Shown here: positions 6,026-41,847 of the stretch, piece by piece | How positions within the stretch are numbered: position 1 is the stretch's first letter | Layout: every line of letters begins with the position of its first letter | Source of the DNA: Sphyrna mokarran | Taxonomy: Eukaryota | Assembly: GCA_024679065.1 (NCBI GenBank) | Contig: JAGIQG010000043.1 | Span: 1,302,001 to 1,366,000, forward strand | DNA: 64,000 bases | Reading direction: 5' to 3' | Program-made: the position numbers and the translations under genes | The notes under the pieces: generated by a model | What the model was told of the DNA's origin: nothing | Seen by the model: only the letters and a program-made list of their open reading frames with translations | Database searches by the model: none

Positions 6026-6080
6026 ATGGTCGAAGAATCTCTATCTTTGATAGTCATTTTCCAAATCCTGAGATTTCACT
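6026..6080 (+). CDS. Gene A exon 1, signal peptide (MVEESLSLIVIFQILRFH)
   Basis: ATG in aacATGg context, hydrophobic core, phase-1 GTGAGT donor at 6081. Confidence 0.75.
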
Positions 6081-6634: not shown

Positions 6635-6964
6635 TTACAGAATCCGAGTCCTCTCTGTCTCAGATCCCCTTCACAGTGACAGCTGCAGTGGGCCAAACGG
6701 TGGAGTTATTCTTCCATGACACTCAAGAAGTGAATTTGGTATCCGACTATGCTTGGTACAAACAGAGGCTGGGTGAAGCCCCGATACTAATAAACACCAC
6801 AACCTGTACTAGGCCCAACTGTAAGTTTATTTCTGAAAAAGGCAATCCAGGGAATGTGTTGATTCTGAAAATTCGCAATGTCCAGACCACTGACTCTGGT
6901 TCGTACTACTGTATATATACTTGGTCTGCACTGTTCGGGGATGGAACCATACTCCTGGTTGGAG
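6635..6964 (+). CDS. Gene A exon 2, Ig V-set domain with germline-joined J motif
   Basis: LSQIP..VGQTVEL, WYKQRLGEAP, LKIRNVQTTDSGSYYC and FGDGTILLV in one frame; acceptor ending 6634 (the one ending 6640 would create TAA); GTAAGG donor; B-strand Cys is Phe. Confidence 0.9.
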
Positions 6965-7055: not shown

Positions 7056-7385
7056 ACAGTTCCACCAACAAGACGGCTGTGCAAGTATTTGTCCCGCTGG
7101 CTGAGCTGGATGTGCATGATGCCGTGCCCTTAGTGTGTTTGGTCAATGGAGTTTCTTCCAATCAGGTGGCTATTTTCTGGAATATTTCTGGCCTGGTCAC
7201 TGAGGGATCGAGTGATCCCGGGACAATGGAGGAGGATGGGACCTACAGCATCAGAAGTCGTGTCATGGTGTCGGGGCAAGTCTGGAGAAGTGGCGGTGTC
7301 TGTACTTGCATTGTTCAACCGGGGATTTCAGGCAAATATTGGACGGAGAGCGTGTTCTTCCCCAAAGCAACAGAAACTGGGACAG
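7056..7385 (+). CDS. Gene A exon 3, Ig C1-set domain
   Basis: VQVFVP, LVCLVNG, IFWNISG, DGTYSIRSRVMV, WRSGGVCTCIV; phase 1-1; tccag acceptor, GTGAGT donor. Confidence 0.9.
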
Positions 7386-8974: not shown

Positions 8975-9076
8975 GATGGTGCAATCTGGCACAATCCGTT
9001 GCCATTATTATCCTGGTGATTCCGAATATCCTTCTTGTCCTTCTTTGCTTTTGTATTTGGAAGAGAGGCAGAACAG
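8975..9076 (+). CDS. Gene A exon 4, stalk and transmembrane (GWCNLAQSVAIIILVIPNILLVLLCFCIWKRGRT)
   Basis: ctccatag acceptor, 102 nt phase 1-1, about 21 hydrophobic residues then KRGR, GTGAGG donor. Confidence 0.85.
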
Positions 9077-9173
9077 GTGAGGAATAATATCCAGTATGGA
9101 TATCATTACTATTGTTCATCCTATCTGATTCCCCTCGAAGTTTTAAATTGCTGATCACAGTGTCTTGTTTCAG

Positions 9174-9204
9174 GAGAACGAGGGGAGGTAGCCGCTAATG
9201 AAAG
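9174..9204 (+). CDS. Gene A cytoplasmic exon 5 (GERGEVAANE)
   Basis: tttcag acceptor, GTGAGT donor, open in the incoming phase. Confidence 0.7.
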
Positions 9205-9404
9205 GTGAGTAACTGGGCCAATTTCAAAGTTCACCTCTCTGTATGTAATATGATTTTCAACATAATTCAAAACCACTACTTATTCCAATGGCGCATGTTG
9301 AATTTTCCCATATTTTACCAATGAGTGACTTTTTTCTCAAATATTTCTTGGCCAGGATTTGCAGGGTATAATTCCTGTTTAATTCTGTTTATTTTCTTAT
9401 CCAG

Positions 9405-9457
9405 TTTTAGCTTGACAGAAAGAATGAGTAGAGGGCAGCGGAAAGACAAGCAAATGG
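9405..9457 (+). CDS. Gene A cytoplasmic exon 6 (SFSLTERMSRGQRKDKQM); alternative in-frame start at 9411
   Basis: Polypyrimidine tract plus ccag, GTAAGT donor, phase 2 to 1. Confidence 0.65.
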
Positions 9458-10218
9458 GTAAGTTGCATCCAAACGTTTGCAAAGATTCAACATCATTGAA
9501 CAGATCAATCATGGAGTCTTTGCAGTGCAGGAGGCCAGTCGGCTTATTGAACCTGCATTGAGACCAATCCCATCCAGGCTCTATCCCTGTCGCCTCACAC
9601 ATTTACAGAGTTAATACTCCAGACGGACCCTATTCATTTCCTGTTGGATATACATGTCGATTATGCTGCAATTTTCCCTAATTTTACCAGGCAGGTCTTT
9701 CTCATATCCATATCCAGAGTTGCCTAGTGCTTCACATCTTTACTGTTTGCTTAAACTGATCCAACTGACGGGCAACACGACAGCTCATTGACTATCACTG
9801 TTTGCTGTGCAGACACATGGACCTGGGTCGGATCTCCGACTTAGGCCGGTGTCTGTGACAGTTTGTACTTGCTCCCCGTGCTTGCGTGGGTTTTCTCCGG
9901 CTGTTCCGGTTTCCTCCCATACCTCCAAAACGTGCTTTTAGGCTGATTGATGTTAACAAATTGTCCCTAAATTAGACCTCCCTTAATCTGGCACACACAT
10001 TCTCTAAATTTGCACCCCTTTATTGTAGAGTCCAAGAGGCGTAGACAAAAGTCAGAGGTGGAAGAAGGATTGGAATGAGCCACTCACTGAATGTTAAAAT
10101 GGCGGCGCCGGCTTGTTTCGCCGAAATGCCTGTTTCCTGAGCTGTGTTACTCTGTGTTCGTTGTTCGTTGTATTCCTGACTGCTTTCCTAAATTGACACC
10201 TTCCACTTTGTTATATAG

Positions 10219-10268
10219 ATGACCATCGCCAAACACATCGACAGAGAACACAGGAATGTCTAGTTCAG
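10219..10268 (+). CDS. Gene A cytoplasmic exon 7 (DDHRQTHRQRTQECLVQ)
   Basis: atag acceptor, CAG/GTAAGA donor; only the phase-1 frame is open, which matches exon 6. Confidence 0.6.
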
Positions 10269-10674
10269 GTAAGAGTTTTGCAAATATTTTAATACCATTT
10301 AGGAAATTGGATTTTGGGATAAGTTGCAGGATGTCCCACCCGGGATAGTACATGCGGCTATCAGCGAGCAGCTCACTGTCTGAAACATCTAATTGTGAAC
10401 CAAAATACATTCGTCCACATTTTGGAATCAGAGCATATATCTCTGCGCCTCTTCCAAAATATTGTACAGCGAGCGAGTTAATGTTCCGTTTACAATATAT
10501 CAGGTAGACGTTTCTGCAGATTTCCGGCAGTTTTCATTGCTGATTGCAAGATGTCTTACTTCTCTTCACTTTCTGTTTTTTTTTACATGGTGGATCTAAT
10601 TCCCCCTTAATCAGTTCCAGGTTTCCTCCCATCTGTGCACTGTTGGAAGTGTATTAATTGCTGGGATTATCTTT

Positions 10675-11460
10675 ACAGTGCAATAATGGTTAACAATGCT
10701 GTTTCACAATGTCAGGGACTTGGGTTCAATCTTCGGCTTGTGTCAATGTCTCTGTGGAGTTTTCACGTTTTCCCTGTGCCTGCACGGGGTTCCTCCGGGT
10801 GCTCCAGTTTCCTCTCACTGTCCAAAGATGTGCGGATTAGGTGGGTTGGCTATGCTGAATTGCCCTTAATGTCAGGGGGACTAGCGAGAGTAAATGCATG
10901 GGATTATAGAACATAGAACATTACAGCGCAGTACACGGCCTTCGGCCCTCAATGTTGCGCCGACCAATGGAACCAATTTTTGAGGCTCTATCTTAAACTA
11001 TTCCAACGTTATCCATATGACTATCCACTGACAATTTGAACGCCCTTAAACTTGACGAGTCCACAACTGCTGCAGGCAGGGCATTCCACGCCCTTACTAC
11101 CCTCTGAATAAAGAACCCACCTCTAGCATCTGTCCGATAACTACCTCCCCTTAGTTTAAAGCTATGTCCCTTCGTGTTATCCATCCCCATCCGAGGAAAA
11201 GGGTTCTCACTATCCACCCTATGTAACCCTCTGATCATCTTATATGTCTCAATTAAGTCACATCTTAGCCTTCTTCTCTCTACTAAAAATAACCACAAGT
11301 CACTTAGCCTTTCCTCATAAGATCTACCCTCCATATCAGGCAAAATCCTGGTCATCCTCCTCTGCATCCTTTCCAATGCCTATGGGGATAGGGCCTGGGT
11401 GTGATGGTGGTGCAAACTGGATGGACCGAATGACCTCATGCTGTACTGCAGGATTCTATA
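10675..11460 (+). mobile_element. HE1/V-SINE-like element interrupted by a CR1 3' fragment (10908-11378, - strand)
   Basis: SINE head and core 10675-10907, tail resumes at about 11380; the insert encodes ORF 10993-11376. Confidence 0.75.
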
Positions 11461-11469
11461 TACGTGTTA

Positions 11470-11770
11470 GTTTGAGCTAGTGTGTTTGTGAAATTCTTTG
11501 CATCTCTGTGTCTGTGATGTTGAGAGTTTGTTGTGTGTGAAGTTGTGACATTCTCTTTCTGTGTAACTTTTGTAACTTTCTCGGTGAGAGATTGTGTCTG
11601 TGTTGAGTGGGACAGATGAATGTGTGTGTGCATGAGGGGGAGACTCAGAGAGAGAGAGATAGAGGCTACGTGTTTGAGGGAGTCGGTGAATGAGTGAAAA
11701 CTTCCGTACTGTATGTGTTTCTGTGTGCATCTGTGTCCTATGTGTAAGTGTGTCTGAGTCTGTGTGTCCT
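11470..11770. repeat. Degenerate TG/GA low-complexity tract
   Basis: Interrupted tgtgtg and gagaga runs. Confidence 0.7.
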
Positions 11771-12476
11771 GGAGCTGTGAAGCAGCAGTGTTCCATGCCG
11801 CCCGCGATGGATGATGTTACTGGCTAATTCATTCTTCCATAGATGCCATTTATTTTGAAATTGGGATAGAGAACAGTGGAAGCGGGTTAAATAAACACTT
11901 TGAAAGGAAATTGGATAACTGCTTGTTGGAAAGAACATTGATGAGCATTATGAAGAAAGCTGAGGCGAAGTTTGAACTAAATAGGATGTTATCGCCTTTC
12001 AGACTTATTGCTAGAAGATTAGTCCATGAACTCAGCAAATGTTCTGAGGATTGTGTTCCAGTCCAACCCCACCACAGGGCGGAACATATATTCAGTGAAA
12101 AATTTTTGGAATTAAGTATCCACTGATGAACAAGAAACCATTGTTAGAAAAAAAAAACACGTGAGCGACACTATTGCAAAGTAAATGTGCCATTCTTATC
12201 TAGTGTGGCCTACATTCTTATCTAGTGGGCGGCAGACTGCGCAAAGTCAGCAATACCCACGTCCCATGGATGAATACAAAGTGGATTGCTCTTTCAATGA
12301 TCCAACAGGGATTCATTGGGCCGAATAGTTTCCATCTAAACAGTAGCATTCTACGGTTTTATGTAACACTTTTGAGATTTGGTGTCATCCTATATATTTA
12401 TGGCCGGAGACCTGCTACTGCACTTTAGGGGATCTATTGCTCCCTTTGATCATTCTATAATTTGTGAATGTTTCAG

Positions 12477-12515
12477 AGTGGACCTAACGACGCCTTCCTG
12501 GATTTGGCCGCCTAG
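12477..12515 (+). CDS. Gene A putative terminal coding exon (SGPNDAFLDLAA*)
   Basis: tttcag acceptor; exon and 3' UTR conserved with 38440-38850 (-); reading frame assumes direct splicing from 10268. Confidence 0.5.
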   Translation, partial: SGPNDAFLDLAA

Positions 12516-12931
12516 GAAAAGAGGTCAAAAAAGAAGGCGGGTCGAAAGTAAGAATCCAAACCATGAATTATGGAGGGTGGCAGAATTTCCTGAAAATCCC
12601 CCAGCCTCGTGGAAGTACCCATGGAGTCAACGAGATTCTCTTCAAGCAGTTATACTTTCCCTACGCATCCGCCAAGCATTGGCTCCAGCGTTCAATGTCA
12701 ATTATTGGAAAATAAATTTACAATATTTCACTGGAATGTTGTTCTTCAGCTGTAGACGAAATTTCGAGGAATGTTCAGAGACTTTCCTGAGTCTCTCTGG
12801 AGATTTTCTGCTGATCGTATTGCTCAAATTACTCACATGAGATGTACCACTTTTCTTTGTAAATGTCAACACGCGAATACCAATTAATGATTCTATCTTT
12901 ATAACGTTGACTTGTTTTGACCTTGATTAAC

Positions 12932-12937
12932 AATAAA
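12932..12937 (+). terminator. Putative poly(A) signal of gene A
   Basis: AATAAA in ttgattaacAATAAActta, conserved in the paralogue at 38445-38450 (-). Confidence 0.55.
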
Positions 12938-13742
12938 CTTAAAACTAAATGTAATCGTTATGATGCTGCAATTTCCGTTGAACTGACACTATCATTGCAG
13001 AATTCAGATGTTTGTCAAGGCTTCAGGTGTGACAGGTTTGATGATTTGTCGAATTGGAATTCAATGAGAGATGGTCCCAGATTGCAGTGCATGGAATTTC
13101 CAATGTTTTCATCATAGTTTTGTAATATGTGAATTCGTGTTTGTATTTAACTTAAACCCATACATTTCAAAGCAACAGGATAAATACAATGTTACGGAAG
13201 AAGTAATGAATTTCGATTTGTGCTCTGCAGCATTTGGATCTTCTTATCAATCCTTCTCATTTCCTCACCAGCTCTGTCCTCACTTATAGAAAGTATTATT
13301 TTCGTGAGACTATTAATGCAGAAACTCACATGCCACAAACTCAGTCGTCTTGCATGATCGGGCGTTTAAAGAGTTCATCTCAATGCTTCTTAAATGTTGT
13401 GAGTGCTCCGACCTTTACCACCATCTCAGGCAATGGCTTTCACATTTCTATTATCCTCTGAGTGGAAACTTTTTTTTTTCATTTCATCTGCTGTAAACCT
13501 CGTGTTCGTTAGCTTAAGTCAATGCCACAGGCTGGGTATTGATCACTCTGCTCTGGTAAAAAAAAAAGTTCCTTCCTATCAATCCTATCTATGCCGCTCA
13601 TTTTTTTAAAAAACATCAATCAGTCCCTCCCTCAACTTTCTCTGCTCGAAGGTAAATGGCCCTAGCCAATCCAGCCCTCAGCTGAAACAGTGCAGGAATG
13701 TACAATAACTCCCCCGTTTAGGCGAGCTCAGTGATTGTATAT

Positions 13743-15128
13743 CATAGAACATAGAACATTACAGCACAGAACAGGCCCCTCGGCCTTCGATGTTGCGCCG
13801 ACCAATATAAAAAGCAATGCCCCTCCAAACTAAACCATTCCCTTCTCTTCATATACTTATCAACTAACCTCTTAAACGCCACCAAACTTGGCGCATCTAC
13901 AACTGCTGCAGGCAGGGCATTCCACTCCCGAACCACCCTTGGGTAAAGAACCTACCTCTGACATCCGTCCTATAACTATCACCCCTTAATTTAAAGCTGT
14001 GTCCCCTCGTGCTAGCTTTTTCCATCCTAGGAAAAAAGGCTATCACTGTCCACCCTATCTAAACCTCTAATCATCTTATATGTTTCGATCAGGTCCCCTC
14101 TTAGCCTCCTCCTTTCTACGAAAACAACCTCAAATCCCTCAGCCTCTCCTCATAAGACCTGCCCTCCATACCAGGCAACATCCTGGTAAACCTCCTCTGT
14201 ACCCTCTCCAATGCCTCCACATCTTTCTTATAATGCGGGGACCAGAACTGCACACAATACTCCACGTGCGGCCGCACTAGAGTTTTGTACAGTTGCAACA
14301 TGACGTTGCGGCTCCGAAATTCAATCCCTCTACCAATAAAAGCCAAGACTCCATATGCCTTCCTAACAACCTTCTCGACCTGACTGCCTACTTTCAGGAT
14401 CTATGCACATACACACCAAGATCCCTCTGTTCATCTAGACTACTAAGAATCCTACCATTTGCCCTATACGCTACACATTTATTATTTCTGCCATAGTGCA
14501 TTACCTCACACTTTTCCACATTAAACTCCATTTGCCCCCTCTCGGCCCAGCTCTGCAACTTGTCCAAGTCCCTCTGCAAACTATAACACCCCTCTTCACT
14601 ATCTACAACTCCACCGACTTTAGTGTCATCTGCAAATTTACTAATCCATCCTTCAATACCCTCATCCATATCATTTATAAAAATTACAAACAGCAGGGGC
14701 CCCAAAACAGACCCCTGAGGTACACCACTTGTCACCGAACTCCAAGATGAATATCTCCCATCAACCACCACCCTCTGTCTTCTATCTGCTAGCCAATTCC
14801 TAACCCACTTAGCTAAATCACCCTCTATCCCATACATCTGCATTTTCTGCAGAAGTCTTCCATGGGCCACCTTATCAAACGCCTTACTAAAGTCCATATA
14901 TACCACATCAACCGCCTTACCCTCATCCACCTCCTTAGTCACTTTTTCAAAAAACTCAATGAGGTTAGTAACGCACGACCTACCCTTCACAAAACCATGC
15001 TGACTATCTCCAATCAATTCATTTCTCTCTAAATAACTATAAATCCTATCCCTAATTATTCTCTCCAACACTTTGCCCACCACAGAAGTAAGACTCACTG
15101 GCCTATAATTCCCTGGAAGGTCTCTCTT
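13743..15128 (-). mobile_element. CR1 family 1, RT and 3' tail
   Basis: ORFs 14394-15155 (NYRPVSLTS, GVPQGSVLGP, KFADD) and 14116-14346. Confidence 0.95.
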
Positions 15129-15399
15129 CAATTTTGAATTATTTATGTTGACCATTTGTGAATGAAAACGATATTAAAATGATGCTGACATAGGTTGATT
15201 GAACACATTTGGACTGAAGCAAAGTAAAACCAGTTGTGAGCAAATCCATATTGTAAGTTTGGCATCTGTGCTTTGAAAAAGCAGGAAAAGTTAATATTGA
15301 CTGAAAAGTAACTCAATCCCCACCCAGATGTGATATCTCAATATTATCCTCTTGGTGACTTTAGGTCACTTGGACAAATTCCTTAGTAATGAAGGCAAG

Positions 15400-17100
15400 G
15401 CAGCCCACTTTCTTCACATAGCTGGAACTCCTCCTGTTGAACGCTGTTGAAAATCTGGAAACTGTTTTTTGTTGGGTGTCTGAGTGATAGTTACCGCACC
15501 AAGCCGGGTAGCTGAAGTGAAAACATAGATCAGGCACTATGTGAATGTAAGAGGGAACAGGATTGAGGCGCTGAATATGTCCCTCCACTTCGATGTTTGT
15601 GATCACACTCAACCATTCTGTAATTGCTTGTTCGGCCAACAATGAAATACAGAACTATTTTCCTGACTCAGCTATGCTGGTCAGAAATCACAATGTTTAT
15701 TTATTTGTTTTGTTTAATTTTCGCATTAACTTGCATAGATTGCAATTCAAGTTAGCTTTCTGTCCATTCTGGAAATCAATGATTTACTGTGACTGTTCTG
15801 GCGCCACCACCAGGAAGAGAGATTGAATAGATTGGTCTGTACTCGTTAGCATTTAGAAGGCTGAAAGGGATCTTATGGGCACATATAAGATAATGAAGGG
15901 GCTAGATAGGGTAGAAGCAGAGAGATTCTTCCCACTTAGAAAGGAAACCAGGACTAGAGGGCACAGCTTCAAAATAAGGGTGGAAGGAGGGGCAGTTTAG
16001 ACCGAAGCTGAGGGAAAATGTCTTCACTCTAGGGTGGTAATTCTCTGGAATTCTCTACTCATTGAAGTAGTAGAGGCTACCTCATTGAATATATTACAGC
16101 TTGGTAGATTTCTGACAGGCAAGGGAATGAAGGGTTATGGGGAGAAAGCAGGAAAGTGGAACTGATTCATTTCAGATCAGACATGATCTTATTGAATGGT
16201 GGGGCAGTCTCGAAAGGCTATATGGCCTTCTGCTGCTCCTATTTATTCTGTTCTTATGCCACATTCCGGCCAGACCAGATATAGAGAGTCGCTTATCTTC
16301 CAGAAAAGAGATCAGTAATTGATTACATTGATCATGGTTGTCATGGGTCAGACGGGATGTTAATCCAAATAATTTAATTTAAATTTCTCCATCTGCCCTG
16401 ATGTATTTGGAATTCTTCTTCCTAAGTAACCATTGACTCTTTTCACACAAATGAATGTGTCTGATTGACCATGTATCTCGGGTGTGAGGCCACTGCACAG
16501 TTCCTTGCTCAGGGTTTATATTGGTAAGTCTTTGTACAGCTGTCCTCTCTCCTCGTGGCTAGCAGTTAAGACAAGAAGTGCATCCACCTTGCCGCCCTCA
16601 ATGTGGCTGACCTGTCCAAAACTGATTATGGTTGTATGTAAATTAAAACAAGAAGAAAAAGAAATACAAACGTTATTATATTGGTGGCAGTGGAATCATT
16701 GTCAGCCCAGAGGGGCAGAATGTCCAAGTGGATAGATTGGTGACTGTTTCCCGTGAACGATTCTGATCAGCTGCAAATGATTCTTTCTTTCACCATGAAA
16801 TTATTTTTCTGTCAGAAGTGAGCATTGACTAAATTTTCTACTTAATACCTCAGTGGCTCTACCGCTCCAAATGCGCTACTCAAATGGATGACCGATTAAG
16901 ACACAGACCTGCAAAGAGATGTTGCAACGTACAGGGTGATAGAAAGTTGCTGGACTGCGGTAGCACAAGGAACCGGAAGAAATGTTGAACATGCACGTTT
17001 TGCAGACACAGCGTGCTGCGGTGTAAACTGCGCCCTAAAAATATTAGTGCAGGGTGAATTGTGGTTCAGAGTTTCCTGTTTATAGATGAAGAGGCCGCGC
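15400..17100 (-). pseudogene. Decayed multi-exon gene remnant, copy 1 (Cys-rich exon; possibly TNFR-superfamily-like)
   Basis: Homologous to 36330-37480; acceptor before 16611 then GGCTSCLNC*P; split by a CR1 at 15825-16258. Confidence 0.3.
15825..16258 (+). mobile_element. Older CR1 3' fragment
   Basis: Degenerate end of ORF2 and tail; absent from the paralogous segment. Confidence 0.75.
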
Positions 17101-18099
17101 ACAGCTCAGTCTGCAATGAGAAACATCTTCTACTTAGTGCTAAGCACGCGTTAAGACTGATCTAACTGTGTCGAGCAGATAATATGGCTGAATTCTGCAA
17201 CATGGCTGTTTGTGAAATTCGAATTGGCACAGCAGATAGCAAAATATTACATTGTATTCATCCCAAACACCTCACCATATTCTGTTTTCTGCAAAGAAGT
17301 AACGAATGAAAAAGTATTCAAAAGGATGCAATTGTTTTCATGGCGGTTTCGCCCATGTACAATTCTCCCTATCTCCTTGGATCATAATCCCATCTTTCGA
17401 TTAGCGGGCTATCTACTGCGGGCTGGTGGTTATAGTTCACACGAACTTCCTCCCACATCAATACAATCGCCGACATCCCCAAACACACATCCCACAACTA
17501 CCAACGACACATTATTTAATTCCTTCCTCTTTCCTCAGTTTATTCAGTTTCACAATGAAATGTATGCCTGTAGATCGGATGATTGTGGGGACTATTTATA
17601 TATGTTCTCTATCTAATGAGCAAAGACTTTCCTCGTGAACTGTCTTCGTCTACCCTGATGATTTATTTCATAACTTTACCTTGCCTATCCTCCACGCTTT
17701 TACCCTTGTATTCCCCAGAGGACAGACGGCTGGTTATCCAATGCTTGTTCTGGTGCACATAAATAGCGAATTGGAGCCGTCCATGTTCAGACCCAAGCAA
17801 ACATTTGCAGCGTTGTTGTTCATTAAATCGCGGTTTCAGACATCCGGAATCATACAGATATCTAAACAGGCGTGGAATGTCTTGAAATCACGTTCAATGC
17901 CCGCATAATCCAAGCGTAAAAAATGAGGCAATATTGTCGACAATATATTCATGCATTATTAATATTTTTCCCCTGAGGAGTAAGATATACCAGAGAATCG
18001 CGTAAGAATGTTTTCAATGTCTGCAAAACCCGATGTCCAGATACAAAATCTCTCAGTAACAAATAGGAAGAAGATTAAGTCTATCACTCCAGTGGACAT

Positions 18100-18355
18100 T
18101 AGAACATAGAACATTACAGCGCAGTCTATGCCCTTCGGCCCTTGATGTTGTGCCGACCGGTGAAACCAATCCAATGACCCTCCCCGCTAAACTATTCTAA
18201 TGTGATCAATATGCCAATCCGCTGTCCATTTGAACGACCTTAAAGTTGGCGAGTCCACAACTGCTGAAAACAAGGCATTCCACGCTCTTACTACCCTCTG
18301 AGTAAGGAACCTACTTCTGACATCTATCCTATAATTAGCAGCCCTCAATTTAAAG
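18100..18355 (-). mobile_element. CR1 3' fragment
   Basis: agaacatagaacattacagc tail, similar to the insert at 10908. Confidence 0.75.
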
Positions 18356-19628
18356 TGTTTCAAACATTAAGTGTTTCTTTCTATTTGGTCTCAGTTTGAA
18401 TCGATGATTCAGTTGCACTGCAGAACGCGTGGGAGGTTTTCCAACCCTAGGGAATGTTGCAGGGGATAAGAATAGTGGTTAAGTGAAAAGATGCAACTGA
18501 TGAATCGAGGAAGGTGTTCAAATGGGAGCAAATCATTGACTGTTGATCACATGGATGCCTATATTTTCAACAATGCAGAGTGAAATGAGCAAAAAAAAAC
18601 ATGGAGAACGGGGAAGGATCTTTCGGGTGTAGAGAATATGTGTTTATTACTGTGACTTTCGAAGATTAAGGAACAATCTGATTTTCCTTAAATAGCAGAA
18701 TAATATAATTAGGATTGACAGAGAGTAACAATTTCCTCTGGGAATGGTGCGAATATCCAGAAGAGAAGCTTCAAAATTGTGTGTAGTTAGCCTAAATTCA
18801 AGGTATTATATTTGTTTTGGGCATTATAATGATCGTAAGATGTTTCATTCTCAGCATGATTTAATTGACCCACTCGGAACCTTTAATCAAACAAAGTTTA
18901 TTTAAGAAAAGAAGTGAGAAATATAACAAACAGAAGTCGCTTAACTTTCACCAATTATAAGATTTAAATATCATACCGTATACTATTAACAGCGATCTAT
19001 ATCTGTTGCTCCAATTTAAAGATTTCTTCTATGTAACCTTCCTCAGAATTGTTTAACACAAAAACACGTTACCTCACGCGATACTAGATTTCCAGCCATT
19101 AATACCAATCAATAGAAATCCAAACAACAGTTTTCAGAGAAGTATATATACACAAGACAGCAAAATAATTACATAAATCTAGTTTCATCAGCTTTGAGAT
19201 TTCAGATCTTCGGGATTAAGAGAATAACTCTCTCTCTCTTTCTCTTCCTCTCTGCAGCTTCCAGAACAGCAACACTCAGAAAGCAGAATCTATAACACCA
19301 GAGAAGGGTCAGAACTGATGGTTCTATCTCAAGTCCAAACATTTAAATAGCAATGAAATTGGAATTTTCTGTGAAAGATCCGTTGTTCACGATCATATGA
19401 CCTGAGCCGCACTGACCAAGTTGCTCTGCAAGCCCAAGGGAACACACACAAGAAAACAGATTGCTACATTAGTTCAGATTGAAAAAAAGGCATAATAACA
19501 AGTTTGATGTCTCAATAACAATGGAAGATGCCGTTGCAGACAAAAGTTCGCATAAGATGCCAAGGACTGCGAGAGACATCCTGTAGATCAACATGATTAA
19601 AACACAGTTTAATCATGTTTTGACTCAG

Positions 19629-21988
19629 TTTTTTGACTCAGTATGTAGAGAGGCCAACTAGAGGTGAGGCTACATTGGATTTGGTGCTGGGCAATGAGCC
19701 AGACCAGGTGTTAGGCTTGGAAGTTAGTGAACATTTTGGTGATAGTGACCACAATTCGGTTACGTTCACCTTAGTGATGGACATGGATAGGCATGAAGCT
19801 GGGGGCTGTAGTTATAGCTGGGGGAAGGGTAATTATGAGGCCATCAGGAGAGAATTAGGGTGCATAGATTGGACTAGGGAACTACAGGGACTGGGAACAT
19901 CTGGAATGTGGTGCTTATTCAAGTAGCAGCTGCTGCGAGTCCTTGATAAGTATGTCCCTGTCAGGCAGGGAGGAAATGGTCGAGTAAGAGAGCCTTGGTG
20001 TACGAAAAAGTTGATTTGCTGGTTAAGAAGAAAAAGGAGGCTTATGTCAGGATGAGGCTTGAAGGCTCAGGTAGTGCAATGGATAGCTATAGATTAGCTA
20101 GGAAGGAGGTAAAAAGTGAATTGAGGAGAGCTAAGATGGGACACGAGAAGATGTTGGCTGATAGGATTAAGGAGAATCCTAAAGCTTTCTTTCGATATGT
20201 TAAGAATAGAAGATTGGTTAGGGCAAGATTAGGGCCAGTCATAGACAGCAGTGGGAGGTTGTGCGTGGAGCCTGAGGAGATTGGAGAGGTACTGAATAAA
20301 TATTTCTCTTCGGTATTCACGCAGGGTGATGTAAATGTAGTTATGGAGAACACTGAGGTACAGGGTTGCAAACTGGAAAGTATTGAAGTAGATAGGGAGG
20401 ATGTGCTAGATATTCTTGAGGGTTTGCAGTTGGATAAGTCCCCTGGGCCGGACAGGATTTACCCTAGGATTCTCTGGGAGGCAAGAGAGGAGATTGCAGA
20501 GCCTCTGGCTCTGATCTTCAGGTCCTCGTTAGTTACGGGTGTGGTTCCGGAGGACTGGAGGATGGCGAATGTGGTCCCATTGTTTAAGAAGGGGAAGAGA
20601 GACCTTCCTGGGAATTATAGTCCAGTGAGTCTTACTTCTGTGGTGGGCAAGGTATTGGAGAGAATTATTAGGGATAGGATTTATAGTTATTTGGAGAGAA
20701 ATGAATTGATTGGGGATAGTCAGCATGTTTTCGTGAAGGGTAGGTCATGCCTTACTAACCTCATTGAGTTTTTTGAGAAAGGGACCAGAGAGGTGGATGG
20801 GGGTAAGGCGGTTGATGTAGTATATATGGACTTTAGTAAGGCGTTTGATAAGGTGGCCCATGGAAGACTTCTACAGAAAATGCCGATGTGTGGAATAGAG
20901 GGTGATTTAGCTAATTGGATTAGAAATTGGCTGGCAGATAGAAGACAGAGGGTGGTGGTTGATGGGAGATTTTCTTCGTGGAGTTCGGTGACGAGTTGTG
21001 TGCCTCAGGGGTCTGTTTTGGGGCCCCTGCTGTTTGTAATTTTTATAAATGATCTGGATGAGCTTATTGAGGGATGGATCAGTAAATTTGCAGATGATAC
21101 TAAAGTTGGTGGAGTGGTAGATAGTGAAGAGGGTTGTTTTAGTTTACAGAGTGACTTGGACAAGTTGCAGAGCTGGGCCGAGAGGTGGCAAATGGAGTTT
21201 AATGTGAAAAAGTGTGAGGTAATGCACTTTGGCAGGAACAATAAATGTGTAGAGTATAGGGCTAATGGTAGGGCTATTAATAGTGTTGAGGAACAGAAGG
21301 ATCTTGGTGTATGTGTCAATAGATCCCTGAAAGTAGGCAGTCAAGTGGATAAAGTTGTTAAGAAGGCATATGGAGTCTTAGCTTTTATTGGTAGGGGGAT
21401 TGAATTTAGGAGCCGCAGCATCATGTTGCAACTGTACAAAACTCTAGTGCGGCCGCACTTGGAGTATTGTGTGCATTTCTGGTCCCCACATTATAAGAAA
21501 GATGTGGAGGCATTGGAGAGGGTACAGAGGAGGTTTACCAGGATGTTGCCTGGTATGGAGGGCAGGTCCTATGAAGAGAGGTTTAAGGATTTGAGGTTGT
21601 TTTCGTTAGAAAGGAGGCGGCTAAGAGGGGATCTTATTGAAGCATATAAGATGATTAGAGGTTTAGATAGGGTGGACAGTGCTAGCCTTTTTCCTAGGAT
21701 GGAGAAAGCTAGCACGAGGGGACACAGCTTTAACTTAAGGGGTATGAGTTATAGGACGGATATCAGAGGTAGGTTCTTTACTCAAAGAGTGATTAGGGAG
21801 TGGAATGCCCTGCCTGCAGCTGTTGTAGATGCGCCAAGTTTGGTGGCGTTTAAGAGGTTAATTGATAAGTATATGGAAAAGAAGGGAATGGTTTAGTTTG
21901 GAGGGGCATTGCTTTTTATTTTGGTCGGCACAACATCGAAGGCCGAAGGGCCTGTTCTGTGCTGTATTGTTCTATGTTCTATGTTCTA
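19629..21988 (+). mobile_element. CR1 family 1, most of ORF2 (endonuclease C-terminus plus a 633-aa RT ORF)
   Basis: LDLVLGN and SDHNSV endonuclease motifs; RT motifs; (GTTCTAT)n tail. Confidence 0.95.
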
Positions 21989-23787
21989 CATTAGTTCGAG
22001 GCACGGCATCGTCACAGTGGGCTGAGTCAAGAAAATGTGGATGGGTGTAGTGGGGAGTGGCGGCCGGCGGCTGGCATATGATGTTTCTAGATAATGGAAT
22101 CTGTGTATTTGAATGTGACTTATTCACAATTCTTCAAATAAAGAAAACGGGGGATCTGTAATTCATAACTTAGAATAACTGTTGAGACGAGTACTAAAAT
22201 GAACCTGAACAAACAGAAATTCCTAAAAGACAGAAATACTGTCTTTTAGGAACTGGATAGATTTTTAGACGTGAGCTGTGCGGTTCGAGTTAAGATATTG
22301 TTACAAGTTGGTGGAAATTAACTCACTGAAGTGTTGAATGGTCTCCTACTGTTAGCATGCATGGCGGGTGCGGGAGTGGGGGCGTGGGGGGAGGGAAGAA
22401 AAGTAATTGTAAACGCTGATAAAAGAGAAATACGTCTAATGTTCATGCTGTGATAGATAGGATGTGAAACAAAAGTACAAATTCAATCAGCCAACGAATA
22501 CCAGACAGGTTCTTCCTTTGCTGTACATGGGTAAGGTTTTCTGATCCGATTCTGTAAAATCTACTGAGTGATGCTATCCAAAGCGAACATGCATTGGAAA
22601 TATTTTTTTTCTCAACAATAAATGCATCTTTGTTCATTACCACTTTCAAACATGTTCCAGAATGCTCTCACTCTGCATATTTTTTTAATTAATCCAGCGT
22701 GAACCCTCAACGAATTACTCAACTGCCTCATGAGTTATTTACACATTTCCAAGCGCGCACACATTCACTGCAAAAATGCCTTTGTTAATTCGCTGAAAAG
22801 CTACCGGCACCGCATTTGGGCTGAACCGATACAGGATCTGGAATAATGAGCTTACATTGGTGTTCAAAATCTGTTTCAATATATTGGTAACTTGGATACA
22901 GATACATTTTGAATTGTTCATTGCATATTTACTGCAGACAATACAGAATGGAATTCAAAATAAATGAGGAATTAGATGAGTGAAGAGGTGAAATTGCATT
23001 GCAGGCGATATTCCATTGTAGAATGGCGGGCATTATTGGAAGAGTGTGTTTTCCCCTTTGGGCGCCATCACAGCATTGATCCGCCAATCCGGGTAGACCT
23101 TCAAAAATTACTGTGCAACAAAAGGAATGTTTCTATACTAGATATACAGGAAATACACACTTCTCTCTGTCTCGTTCTCTTTTGTTCGTCTCAAGTTAGC
23201 TTGTTGGATCCCCACTGGAGACCAGACAAGCACAGCCTGTGGGTGAAAAATGATCCGTCAAAGTAATCCACACCATCATTACAGGGATAGGTGAGGCCAT
23301 TGAGCCCCTCAATCTATTCAACTGGATTCGGGCTGAAATGTATCTTAGCTCGTACACTACCACCATTTTTAAATATTCTTTAATATTCTCCTGAATATAA
23401 AACTATCCATCTCAGTTTTGCAATTCCCAATTGTTAACTAGCCTGATCAGCCTTTGTTCTATCTGGGGAACGTTTTCCAAAATTTGACACCAATTATGTG
23501 AAAAATCGACTTTCTAAGTGGACACGGTGTCTCCTAAGTTAACATTCTGCTTCCTTGGCCGGACATCCCCGGATCTCCCCGCTCCCCACTGCTTCCTACA
23601 GCACCGAGCCACGGCTCTATCCTCCAGTGCCACCAACGCCATTAAAGAAAAATTCACGAATTTCCTGGTGGCGGTGTGGTGTAAATGATAGGAAACCAGG
23701 TTGACACAAAATTCAACAACGGGCTGCACCCCTTTGCTGTGGAGGTAGGGAAAATAACCTGCATTATGGAAAATAAAACATACCTTT

Positions 23788-23843
23788 TTATTCTGTACAT
23801 GTGAGGCCTGTACATGTCAAGGCCTCATCACTTCTTGCATGGC
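23788..23843 (-). CDS. Gene B cytoplasmic exon 5 (GHARSDEALTCTGLTCTE*); stop caused by an internal duplication
   Basis: ttctttttcttctaaacag acceptor, AAG/GTATGT donor at 23783, TAA at 23790-23788. Confidence 0.65.
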
Positions 23844-23975
23844 CTGTTTAGAAGAAAAAGAAAATCGGGCTAAATTGCCATATATCATACATTTCATCCA
23901 CAGGATCAATAATTCAGAAGTAAATGGGAGGATTGAGGATGCCACGTGGTTGGAGAGTCTCCGAACAATCCTTAC

Positions 23976-24095
23976 CTCTCTTCCGAGTCCTGCAGCTCCA
24001 TCTCCCAGTCACACAGACCAATCCCAGAAGGAGTAGCGCCACGGACAACACCCACCTTGAAAGTGAAACAATGCATAGCGTTGTTACCGGAAAAT
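23976..24095 (-). CDS. Gene B exon 4, stalk and transmembrane (DFPVTTLCIVSLSRWVLSVALLLLGLVCVTGRWSCRTRKR)
   Basis: Long poly-T plus cag acceptor, 120 nt phase 1-1, GTAAGG donor, basic stop-transfer residues. Confidence 0.85.
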
Positions 24096-26923: not shown

Positions 26924-27229
26924 CTTTCTGAGATGAGACACTTTTGCTGAAAATACTTTCTTCAGAGTTGATCTGAAGGGCGCAAGTGCAGCGAGCGCCG
27001 CTTCTCCAAGTTTCCGCCGGGGGACTGATGTAACTGCTGAAGGTGTAGGTGCCGTCCGGTTCTATTGCCCCCGAATCGGTCAGTCCCGCGGTATCCCGCC
27101 CAGAAACATCCCAGCGGACGGAAATGGAGTCAGGGGACAATCCTCTGATCAAACACAGCAACGGGACCCTTTCCATGACGGGAATCTGATGCTGCGGTGG
27201 GGTGAGGAGGGTTACGGTGGGAGAATCCG
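26924..27229 (-). CDS. Gene B exon 3, Ig C1-set domain
   Basis: PTVTLLTPP, LLCLIRGLSPDSISVRW, DGTYTFSSYI, WRSGARCTCAL; phase 1-1. Confidence 0.9.
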
Positions 27230-27330: not shown

Positions 27331-27669
27331 CTCTAATTATTAACTTGGATCCATTTCCGAATACCAGTTTTCCCTTGTTGAAATGGCGGATTGCACAGTA
27401 ATACACCCCAGAATCGTTTCTCCGCGTATCTGTAATCAGCAGTGAATATTTAGCCACTGTTTCAGAATTCATTTTTGACAAGGTTTTGTATTCCTCGACG
27501 TACTTGTCATGAATGGGAATCAATTTTATTTTGTTTTGCTGCGATTGCGTGTACCAATAGACTCTAGTAGCTCCTGACTCCCAGATATAGCAGTTCAGCT
27601 TAACAGGGCTCCCCTCCTGAAGTGTCTCAACCGATGGAGACTGGGACAAGATAGAATGAGATAATATGA
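27331..27669 (-). CDS. Gene B exon 2, Ig V-set domain with germline-joined J motif
   Basis: LSQSP, EGSPVKLNC, VYWY, LLITDTRRNDSGVYYC and KLVFGNGSKLII in one 339-nt phase 1-1 exon. Confidence 0.92.
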
Positions 27670-30539: not shown

Positions 30540-30582
30540 CTTGGAACAGATGGAAGAATGCACAGATGCCGAGGAAACTCAT
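30540..30582 (-). CDS. Gene B exon 1, signal peptide (MSFLGICAFFHLFQ)
   Basis: gcaATGa start, 43 nt, phase-1 GTGAGA donor; conserved paralogue at 41847-41805. Confidence 0.8.
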
Positions 30583-38439: not shown

Positions 38440-41400
38440 ATAAGTTTATTGTTGATCAAGATCAAGGCAGCTGAGTTTTATACAAATAGAATAGTAAATT
38501 GATATTCAGGCATCAACATTTGCAAAGAAATATGTTTCCTGTGAACAATTTGAGCTACACAATCATCAGAATACTTTCAACGGAATTCAAGAAATTGTCC
38601 TAGCCTCGATCAATGCTTCTTCAAATTTGATGAACACGGTTCCAATGTAATATCCGTAACACAATGTCCAACCATTCACAGTGAAAACTGGAGCCTCTCT
38701 CTGGCGAATGCAGGGGGAAATGTCAGTTGTTTGAAGGGAATCGCTTTTGGTTTCATATTGTTTCCAATATGCTGCGGGATTTTCGGGAAATCCTGCTTCT
38801 GGCAGGGGCGTAGTCAGGTCACACTGAAAGAATCACAAATCATAGAGGGTTCTTCACAACTTTGATCCTGATGCAGTTCTTTGCTGGATGCTGAATATTG
38901 TGGAAACATGCCATCATTGACTATCCAATTGTGAAAATGTCTGGCTGATTTGAAAAATAAAAAATCGTTGGCATCAGCATTGGGTTTAGCATAGGACAGC
39001 ATAGAGATATTTTTGTTGGATACTTCATTACCTTCACCTTCTTTATGAAGTTGTTCTGTCTCCCTGAACACACGTACAAGAAGAAAGCTCTTCCAAAGAT
39101 CTACTAGGGCGCGGATTGGAATTATTCTGAATTCTATCAGTCCATCTCCATGTGATTTCCTCGGAATTTTTACACTGTTCAGGATGCACTGAGGTGCTAA
39201 CATGCATTCATACAATTCTGCAATGCATGAAGAGGCCAATTGATCTCACCGAGTCTGCATTGATTCTCCAACGAATCATCTCATCCATGGCTTAGTCTAT
39301 AACAAATACCCTTCACATATTGACACACTAAATGAATATTTAGCATAGCCAATCCACCTAACCTATAGTGACACACTAAATGAACATTTAGCATAACCAA
39401 TCCACCTAACGTATATATCTTTAGATTGTGGGAAGAAATGAAGTACCCAGAGGACACAGGCACATATACGGAGAGAACATTGAAACTGCACAAAGGAGTG
39501 TTTGAAGCCAGATTTCAAACAAAGATCTCTGGATCTATCAGGGAGCAATGCTAACCATTGTGTCACTGTGCCGTTCTCCGACATGACAAAGGATGTAATT
39601 TACAAATGGACTGACTGCTTACAGTGAATAAAACTGAAAAAAAAGAGATGAGACATTATAAAATTGCGAATAAAATGAAATTGTTGAATCGCGTTATTTT
39701 TATTTCATATGAAGTGGATGTGTCTCGGTAGGATTTTATTGGCGTCAAATCAGAAATCAGATCGCGTTTTGTTAGATATCCATAATTTTCCCACGCATTA
39801 CAATACGAATCAATTTATTCTAATTTTCTTGAGTCCATCCTAAGAAAAAGCTTAACCCTGTTTAATCTATCTACACTCCCCATAATCTTGTATACCTCTA
39901 TTAGATCTCCTCTAAGTATATATCTTTCTAAGGAAAACAATCCCAATTTGCCTAACTTCTGCTCGTAACTCAGACCTTCCATACCTGACAACATTCTGGT
40001 AAACTCCTGTGCACTCTCTCCAGAGTCTCCACGTCCTTCCGGTAGTAAGGCAACCAGATCTGGACGCAGTACTCCAAATGATAATCTCTTATAGAAAAGA
40101 CATCCTTCCTCAGATAACACTTAAAGAATACTCCAGGTGACCTATCCAGTGCCCGATGCAATTGCAGAAAAAGATCCCTAGTCCTAGACTCAGATCCTCT
40201 CTCTATGGAGGCCAACGCATCGTTTCGATTATTTACTGCCTGATGTTTGCATGCGCTTTTCAGCGTTTCTGCCTCTAATCTCAGAAGCTGAATAATGGAC
40301 AGCTCCCGGTGGCAGAGTGAAGATCAACATTTCAGTATGATGAACTCTGACCGAACGAGAAATCTGTGATAGGTCAGTAATTAATTGAATGCATCTAGAA
40401 ACACAGGGAGAAGAGGCACGTTACAGAATTAGACAGCTCTGCATTAAGTCTGACATTAGCATTAAATAGAGGGATAACAGAACATAGAACCTTACAGTGC
40501 AGAAACAGGCCCTTCGGCTCACCGGGTCTGCACCCACCACAATCCCACCCAGGCCCTATTCTCCCATATCCCTACATATTTACCCGGTAATTCCTCTAAC
40601 TTGCACAATCCATGATACTGAGGGGCAATTTGAGCATGGCCAATCAACCTAACCCGCGCATCGTTGGATAAGAGGTAATTGTGAATAGCTATCTCTCTGA
40701 AATGAGACACTTTCACTGAAAATGTTTTACTGGAGTTGATCTGAACGCCACTGCTCCAAGTTCCCACTGGGAGGCTGATGTAACTCCTGACAGTGTTGGA
40801 CCTGCCAAATTCCATTGCCCTGGAATCGGCCAGTGCCTCGATATCCCGCCCCAAAACATCTCCGAGAATGGGAAAGGAATCAGGAGACCATCCAGGACGA
40901 AGAAATGCTGATATGGAGGCAGAACATTTCGACAAATAACATCCCGCATCAGCTCACAAACACGTAAAATCGTGCTGAATATTGTGTTGGTTCTGCAGTT
41001 TACCTCTTCTCTTTTTTAAATACGCAACCCGAGTTCATTCACCAGAAAATCTGGTGTAATCTCTGGAGTGGACATATATGATGACATTACATGACTGTAA
41101 AGATTACAACAATCGTGATAGTTCTTCAGAATTTAATGCTGTTTTCACTCATTGACCATTTGTTTCCTATGACTTTGGGCGCTGGATTTTTTGCTCGAGT
41201 GTTTAGAATTTCAGTTTAAGGCTACAACTCCCACCCACTACCACCACCCCCCCACCACCACCATCCCAACACGCCAATAGCGTCAATGAAATCAAGTCGC
41301 ATCTTTTATGACAATTATCTTCAAATTCCCTTTAATTTCAATTCAGTCCATTGATATATGCATTACATTTTCCACTGCGTTAACTGTCTGTGTTTAGTTG

Positions 41401-41847
41401 CCAAATTAAGCTTGCAAACTAGTTTCATCTCAGAGCCCCACTCAATAGAAAGGGAGATCACTCGGTCCTTCGTCTTGGATTTGCAACTTTGAAAGATTTA
41501 CTCAGTTAGACACCGTCCTCTTGTTTTCCCTATATCACAGCAAATGCTGTCCCCTTGACGTATTTCTACAAATTCCCCATTTTGAAAGTTCCAATTGAAT
41601 CTGCTTTCACCGTCCCTTCACTCAGCACCTTCCAGGTGACAACAGCTCGCTGTGTTGGCAAAAAAAAAAATCTTTCTATCACGGACGTCCTTCGATCTGT
41701 GCTTCTCCCATTAGCGACCCACTTCTGCATTGGAAACAATTTATTCTTAATTAATCAATCCAAATTCCTCTCCATTCTGTCTGAACATAATGATGATATC
41801 TCATCCTGCAAGAGGTGGAAGAATGCAAAGATACTGAGGAAATCCAT
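38440..41847 (-). pseudogene. Pseudogene C: B-type leader and partial C1 exon, V exon deleted, terminal exon homologous to gene A
   Basis: Leader MDFLSIFAFFHLLQ 41847-41805 with donor GT>AT; C1 remnant about 40895-40693 with donor GT>AT; small exon 39063-39032; last exon/UTR 38824-38440. Confidence 0.85.
39815..40260 (-). mobile_element. CR1 fragments
   Basis: HLEYCVQIW..RKDVETLERV, LGLFSLER. Confidence 0.8.

Follow-up and report, generated by a model that had tools for sequence, protein, structure and literature searches.

A convergent pair of V-C1 receptor genes in the shark Sphyrna mokarran may encode an activating two-chain receptor

The 64,000-nucleotide stretch of Sphyrna mokarran DNA analyzed here (contig JAGIQG010000043.1, positions 1,302,001 to 1,366,000; hereafter the window) contains two convergent genes, gene A on the forward strand and gene B on the reverse strand. 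Each would encode a leader, a variable (V) domain with its joining (J) segment, one C1-set domain, and a transmembrane (TM) segment preceded by a stalk cysteine. Judged from their sequences, the favored but tentative reading is that the two products form a disulfide-linked heterodimer with an activating signal, relayed by an adaptor of the FcRgamma or zeta type at an arginine of the gene B TM segment. The two proteins would pair V to V and C1 to C1, as in an antigen-binding fragment (Fab) or a T-cell receptor (TCR), the stalk cysteines would lock the dimer, and the gene B arginine would bind the adaptor to give an activating signal. The pair would be expressed and would form the activating side of a system in which inhibitory A/B dimers recognize the same ligand. 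By analogy, it likely resembles a paired activating receptor on a TCR-shaped scaffold.

Results

The window pair belongs to a large two-class cluster

The exon models of gene A and gene B (Table 1) were derived from splice signals and from homologous proteins rather than from RNA. A look-up of RNA data listed none containing gene A, an outcome with no bearing on its expression. The stalk/TM exons of both genes are flanked by AG/GT splice sites with phase-1 junctions, and the leader, V, C1, and TM exons are undamaged in both, together with their splice sites. Because V and J form one exon, neither gene rearranges. An earlier note on this DNA had pointed out the motifs GWCN and IPNILL in gene A, TTLCIV, LSRWVL, and VTGRWS in gene B, and the convergent arrangement; all were found where it had placed them. 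It had also proposed an invariant heterodimer encoded by two genes. The genes are germline-joined and non-rearranging, but they are only 2 of at least 75 genes.

Searches with C1 exons retrieved two paralogue classes over 0.6-2.85 Mb of the contig (labeled C1027 in the genome labeled G000), that is, a 2.2 Mb cluster. The examined DNA covered 988 kb of the 2.86 Mb contig, picked around C1 matches, and gene counts are thus lower bounds. It holds at least 34 A-type and at least 41 B-type C1 loci (at least 75 in total) and three further B TM modules without a V-C1 of their own in that DNA. VJ is a single open exon in both window genes, and the cluster's full-length V exons show the same arrangement. 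Canonical A and canonical B tails both end in an immunoreceptor tyrosine-based inhibitory motif (ITIM; YASL in A, YARL or YAGL in B). The two classes alternate along the contig (56 runs of 75 C1 exons versus 38.2 expected, p=2.5e-5), and the A subclades of neighboring genes correspond to the B subclades.

Conserved features of the two chains are consistent with heterodimers

The membrane-proximal cysteine that had been noticed in both window chains was invariant across the cluster (29/29 A and 37/37 B TM exons) and was likewise present in TM-bearing homologues from other sharks and rays. In most shark homologues it lies 26 (A) or 25 (B) residues after the last C1 Cys motif. The V domains differ by class at position W+9 of framework region 2 (FR2), which is Pro in 30 of 31 A V exons and Met or Ile in 25 of 29 B V exons, with Pro in none of the B exons. 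In aligned sequences, this Pro/non-Pro split parallels the Pro of light chains versus the Leu of heavy chains. The AlphaFold2 (AF2) model of the gene A V domain (pLDDT 86) matched almost exclusively antibody light chains in a fold search, and that of the gene B V domain (also pLDDT 86) gave mixed matches (nanobody, TCR, light-chain V, and the shark V domain VNAR).

In a tree of 55 proteins, the A-type (support 94/95) and B-type (97/88) sequences formed separate clades, each containing shark or ray, sturgeon or paddlefish, lungfish, and turtle proteins. On this protein tree, the A and B lineages predate the split of sharks and bony fishes and have been retained together over 400 million years. 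The three immunoglobulin (Ig) and TCR outgroups stood apart from the family (99/97), two of them on long branches. A third clade held coelacanth and salmonid proteins; the salmonid proteins P0042-P0044 and P0046 (V-C1-Cys-TM-ITIM) carry the TM motif SAAALL, as in shark B, and fall in this third clade by their V-C1 part. In many sharks and rays, homologues are annotated with Ig-like names, and the databases call these genes Ig light- or heavy-chain-like. Profile searches and name look-ups extended the family to chimaera, sturgeon, paddlefish, salmonids, coelacanth, lungfish, caecilian, turtles, and alligator. A germline-joined Ig light chain was rejected as an identity on the TM segment, the ITIM tail, and the tree position.

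The disulfide-linked heterodimer proposed earlier thus receives indirect support from the invariant cysteine at matching distance from C1, the alternation and co-duplication of the two classes, the asymmetry reminiscent of light- and heavy-chain V domains (VL and VH), and the two ancient lineages. The joint loss of the ITIM from gene A and gene B is consistent with an obligate pair. From these sequence features, formation of A/B heterodimers by the family is somewhat likely.

Arginine at Cys+6/+7 of the B chain tracks ITIM loss

The Arg of gene B lies at Cys+6, where the inhibitory sister genes have Gly. Arg at Cys+6 or Cys+7 was found in 7 of the 38 B TM modules, and the ITIM exon was destroyed in all seven. 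In contrast, the ITIM was retained in 30/30 scorable B modules without Arg at these positions, even though several of them are on broken genes; one of the 38 had no last exon in the examined DNA. A single clade for the seven Arg modules was rejected (p-AU 4e-46). The starred branches of the tree force at least three changes, and parsimony gives four. A Fisher p of 1e-7 for the link between Arg and ITIM loss is overstated, since near-copies are treated as independent, and the fair count is 3-4 origins. Among 19 TM-bearing B proteins of other species, Arg at +7 together with an annotated tail without ITIM was seen once, in horn shark P0035; this protein is known from its annotation, and exon skipping could account for the tail.

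Arg at Cys+15 or Cys+18 was rejected as an activating mark, as all four B modules with Arg at these positions kept the ITIM. In three B TM exons (L003, L008, and L029; C1027:789333, 935675, and 1709157), Arg at Cys+15 falls in mid-membrane and the ITIM is retained; they are possibly dual-function modules, by analogy with KIR2DL4.

In gene B, 17 apolar residues separate the Arg from the cytoplasmic Arg. The TM boundary prediction was divided: on the Hessa scale, the Arg is included in the best hydrophobic windows of 19-23 residues, but the best 17-mer begins just after it. FcRgamma-coupled receptors carry an Arg in the N-terminal TM segment, at TM position 3 in FcalphaRI (PMC1440944). Two zeta/FcRgamma-type TM exons (PF11628) with a CYxLD motif and the acidic residue of such adaptors are present in this genome. 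The earlier suggestion that the B Arg could recruit an FcRgamma- or zeta-type adaptor is thus supported indirectly by its tracking of ITIM loss (7/7 versus 0/30), and this pattern in the sequences makes an activating role of gene B probable.

Both window genes have lost the ITIM, and a duplicate cassette shares the lesions

The deduced tails of gene A and gene B contain no Tyr. The stop codon of each gene is situated inside the last exon or no more than 4 nt from it and, by the established position rule, should escape nonsense-mediated decay. The last exon of gene A differs from that of the inhibitory gene A1142 at 4 of 116 nt; three amino acids of the ITIM hexamer are altered and one stop is created, and p=0.012 for this clustering of changes in the ITIM. 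The proposal that A and B are an activating/inhibitory pair is not supported for an inhibitory A with an activating B, because window A, too, has lost its ITIM. Activating and inhibitory forms are paired at the level of whole A/B cassettes, rather than between A and B.

A duplicate cassette, A1043/B1062, carries the same tail changes as the window pair, with an additional 577-bp deletion in the A1043 tail. B1062 (Arg, no ITIM) is 99.8% identical to B1118 (ITIM) over 2,990 bp of leader-V-C1 DNA, but the TM/tail regions of the two are only 75-80% identical, and that of B1062 is 98% identical to window B. The Arg-bearing B TM/tail module has a branch of 0.21, introns 75-80% identical to those of its sisters, and a TM frame that is open in both copies. 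We infer from these identities that the activating module is old and that the ectodomain of at least one copy was recently homogenized with that of its inhibitory twin. The same pattern is described for the paired receptors Siglec-11/16, with gene conversion of the ectodomain (PMC5701461). Siglec-5/14 reportedly form another pair of this type.

The A-chain Asn and the GRWS motif

The earlier note had regarded the TM polar residues of the two chains as complementary. However, the Asn of gene A was found in 1 of 29 A TM exons; it is one base change away from Ile, and the three closest paralogues read IPIILL. It was not found in the duplicate cassette, which has the same B Arg, nor in the hydrophobic span of 12 TM-bearing A proteins from other sharks. 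The Asn lies at Cys+15 and the B Arg at Cys+6, an offset of nine residues or about 13 angstroms of helix, and the two would be too far apart to pair if the cysteines are linked in register. The gene B TM segment contains no Tyr and no Lys, and the TCR TM interface is an Asn-Tyr-Thr network, not an Asn-Arg pair (PMC9860311). The A-chain Asn is probably incidental. Among the residues singled out earlier, conservation thus bore out the cysteine but not the Asn, and the Arg at Cys+6/+7 is limited to 7/38 B TM exons.

GRWS, which had been set beside the TLRLWS end of TCR alpha, occurs in 7 of 38 B TM exons, five of which are ITIM-bearing. It is a subfamily trait and was rejected as a sign of TCR-alpha homology.

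Weighing of the alternatives

Several observations weigh against the activating heterodimer. At W+9, two ray A-type proteins have Leu instead of Pro. The V domain of window A lacks the B-strand Cys, and the fold search with the gene B V model singled out neither VH nor TCR V-beta. The C1 interface positions, taken from Fab numbering, are hydrophobic in A and B alike and give no distinction between hetero- and homodimers. Alternation and matching subclades are also expected from duplication of a single ancestral block of two genes. The orientation varies: the 61 A-B adjacencies comprise 41 tandem, 12 convergent, and 8 divergent ones, and convergence is therefore a trait of the subclade of the window pair. 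Broken genes carry four of the seven Arg modules, a fifth stands behind an A-type ectodomain, and the Arg of window B may, as predicted from its sequence, lie at the membrane interface. The joint ITIM loss in window A and B reflects a single event that was later duplicated once and carries no statistical weight, and the tail-less gene A2409 (Arg at +9, Gln at +16) adjoins an ITIM-bearing B. A natural A+B fusion was sought among six returned proteins, and none was found; a PDB search with a TCR-beta-like protein returned no full-length TCR chain for comparison of the Cys-to-TM distance.

The first alternative is that A and B each form disulfide-linked homodimers, with B activating through its Arg, A an unrelated ITIM-less copy, and the pairing a product of block duplication. 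The stalk cysteine suits homodimers equally, and UrIg/UrIg2 are homodimers (PMC12227049). The small-residue motif GGxSAAA of canonical B TM segments lends itself to self-association, most A-B neighbors are tandem, and A2409 stands beside an inhibitory B. Against this stand the class-fixed Pro versus Met/Ile at a V-V socket position and the co-retention of both lineages. Moreover, the ITIM of window A was lost by focused changes exactly where the neighboring B is of the activating type. We consider homodimers rather unlikely.

Alternatively, the cassette could be decaying or a decoy, the tail lesions, Arg, Asn, and lost V Cys being unselected damage and the proteins absent or non-signaling. The cluster is rich in pseudogenes and partial genes, the duplicate A1043 has its further tail deletion, gene A combines a TM Asn of its own with the loss of a canonical Cys, and the broken genes behind four of the seven Arg modules fit such decay. 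However, the ectodomain and TM exons and their splice sites are intact in both genes, and the old B TM/tail module still has an open TM frame in both copies. Among the scored B modules, ITIM loss was also restricted to those with Arg, and the Cys-to-Phe change is common to ITIM-bearing paralogues. We consider decay unlikely. A TCR-like polar TM interface, in which the A Asn complements the B Arg, is very improbable: the two residues do occur together in this one pair, but the private Asn, the nine-residue offset, and the missing Tyr and Lys speak against it.

Gene models and other members of the family

The coordinates of the gene A and gene B exons are collected in Table 1. In the V domain of gene A, the B-strand Cys is replaced with Phe, as in four close paralogues. 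The five A genes with this replacement are the window gene (6635-6964), L010, L011, L014, and L015; a second Cys pair is retained, and the AF2 model of window gene A still adopts the V-domain fold.

Table 1. Exons of gene A and gene B, with positions counted from the first letter of the window
Feature	Position	Strand	Remarks
Gene A leader exon	6026..6080	+	ATG; phase-1 GT donor; resembles paralogue leaders
Gene A germline-joined VJ exon	6635..6964	+	Pfam V-set; acceptor inferred; FR2 Pro at W+9
Gene A C1-set exon	7056..7385	+	Pfam C1-set
Gene A stalk/TM exon	8975..9076	+	GWCN, Cys codon 8980-8982; IPNILL, Asn codon 9025-9027 (Ile in paralogues)
Gene A cytoplasmic exon 1	9174..9204	+	
Gene A cytoplasmic exon 2	9405..9457	+	
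Gene A cytoplasmic exon 3	10219..10268	+	
Gene A last coding exon	12477..12554	+	ITIM remnant 12483-12500 (family YASL reads DAFL); early TAG 12513-12515
Gene B leader exon	30540..30582	-	
Gene B germline-joined VJ exon	27331..27669	-	Pfam V-set; FGNG J motif; Ile at W+9
Gene B C1-set exon	26924..27229	-	Pfam C1-set; in-frame AG acceptor immediately before 27229
Gene B stalk/TM exon	23976..24095	-	TTLCIV, Cys 24075-24073; LSRWVL, Arg 24057-24055 at Cys+6; VTGRWS
Gene B cytoplasmic exon 1	23784..23843	-	1 base longer than in sisters; TAA 23790-23788, 4 nt ahead of last junction
Gene B last-exon remnant	23180..23236	-	4-nt deletion takes out the ITIM tyrosine codon

A third family member in the window (40675-41844, reverse strand) is a B-type pseudogene with a leader and a degenerate C1 but no V exon. 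Introns and intergenic DNA are populated by reverse-transcriptase open reading frames of the long interspersed nuclear element type, presumably CR1-like (19950-21896, forward; 57517-59259, reverse; and many fragments).

Elsewhere in the cluster, L002/L099 (G000:C1027:620000-632200, reverse strand) joins a V-C1 unit of the A type to a TM exon of the B type that has Arg at Cys+7, and the ITIM exon behind it is destroyed. The interval 613-633 kb yielded no A-type TM exon, and a chimeric gene with an A ectodomain and a B TM segment is possible. L046 and L054 (C1027:2172719 and 2405650, reverse strand) are A-type TM exons with Arg at Cys+9 and Gln at +16, in which a one-base insertion produces a stop directly after the TM segment; they are possible activating A chains. 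The ectodomain of A2409 is nearly identical to that of the ITIM-bearing A2481. Outside the cluster, L072 and L073 (C894:2.36-2.39 Mb, on a 26.5 Mb contig) form a head-to-head A/B pair with a divergent B, and G000:C838:36.03-36.09 Mb holds four C1 exons which, beyond the family, come next in similarity to the A C1 (35%).

Discussion

The shark candidates for a pre-rearrangement antigen receptor so far, UrIg and UrIg2, are homodimers and not lymphocyte receptors. The V-C1 A/B family, with its asymmetry, stalk cysteine, and two lineages that predate the split, would correspond directly in structure to a TCR-like heterodimer. Between the window cassette and its inhibitory twin, the main differences are in the TM segment and tail, a natural experiment on the switch from inhibition to activation, and the twin cassettes also bear on whether both chains must lose the ITIM. 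A broader proposal, which we regard as doubtful, is that a TCR-shaped system of two germline-encoded chains, ancient in origin, persists in jawed vertebrates. In sharks, about 35 A by 40 B chains would make this system combinatorial without recombination, and it would repeatedly yield activating heterodimers that dock zeta/FcRgamma through an outer TM Arg. On this reading, the system would offer a living model for how a pre-RAG inhibitory V-C1 dimer could turn into a TCR-like activating receptor.

The family shares with TCR alpha/beta and gamma/delta the leader-VJ-C1-stalk Cys-TM layout, two chain classes with V asymmetry, and a basic residue in the predicted outer TM segment of one chain. The membrane-proximal interchain Cys of TCRs has a counterpart in all 29 A and 37 B TM exons (disulfide predicted), although the shark Cys is right at the TM edge. 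In contrast to the split V and J segments of TCRs, which are joined by RAG, the shark VJ is one germline exon. The tails of the family are long and ITIM-bearing, there is no TM Lys and no conserved Asn, and window B has no TM Tyr. A TCR chain was therefore rejected, as there is neither rearrangement nor the TM core.

SIRPs are V-C1-C1 receptors whose activating members signal through a central TM Lys and DAP12. The likeness to the shark genes lies in the VJ and C1-set domains, the ITIM tails, and the paired activating members, and a SIRP-alpha-like cluster scored 0.96 in the ESM Atlas. Both window genes differ in having one C1 exon between V and TM and an outer Arg. UrIg/UrIg2 are, like the shark family, elasmobranch proteins with a non-rearranging VJ exon and C1 domains in a disulfide-linked dimer. 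They differ in having 3 (UrIg) or 9-11 (UrIg2) C1 domains and in being single genes, homodimeric, and highest in liver and gill (PMC12227049). The shark family has one C1 domain and an ITIM tail, and its genes form a large cluster of two classes. A SIRP or UrIg identity of the window pair was rejected on the number of C1 domains.

Siglec-11/16 and FcalphaRI resemble the window pair in that an activating copy arises by gain of a TM basic residue and loss of the ITIM while its ectodomain stays nearly identical to that of the inhibitory partner. They are single-chain or homodimeric and of other folds, whereas the shark unit would be a two-chain V-C1 dimer. This two-chain organization has its nearest functional analogue in CD94/NKG2A versus NKG2C, which have C-type lectin folds.

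The closest relatives reportedly are the non-rearranging genes known as PRARP or VJC1, said to have been described by Fu et al. and by Ohta et al. in 2019 and mentioned in PMC10751288 and PMC11599192. They are said to comprise two related VJ-joined genes of non-avian vertebrates with a V-C1 ectodomain and a tail ITIM, whose products form disulfide-linked homo- or heterodimers. None of the 20 proteins looked up was named PRARP, and our literature search, which did not cover the two most relevant papers (Fu 2019, Ohta 2019), found no description of the shark cluster. The shark genes match these reported features in the non-rearranging VJ exon with one C1 and in the two lineages shared with bony vertebrates, and the A and B clades with turtle, alligator, caecilian, lungfish, and sturgeon or paddlefish fit the reported range. 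The ITIM is present in the shark family (30/37 scored B modules and most A last exons) but absent from the window pair. Set beside this description, the shark family most likely belongs to the PRARP/VJC1 kind, from which it differs in its cluster of at least 75 genes, its recurrent activating derivatives, and gene conversion.

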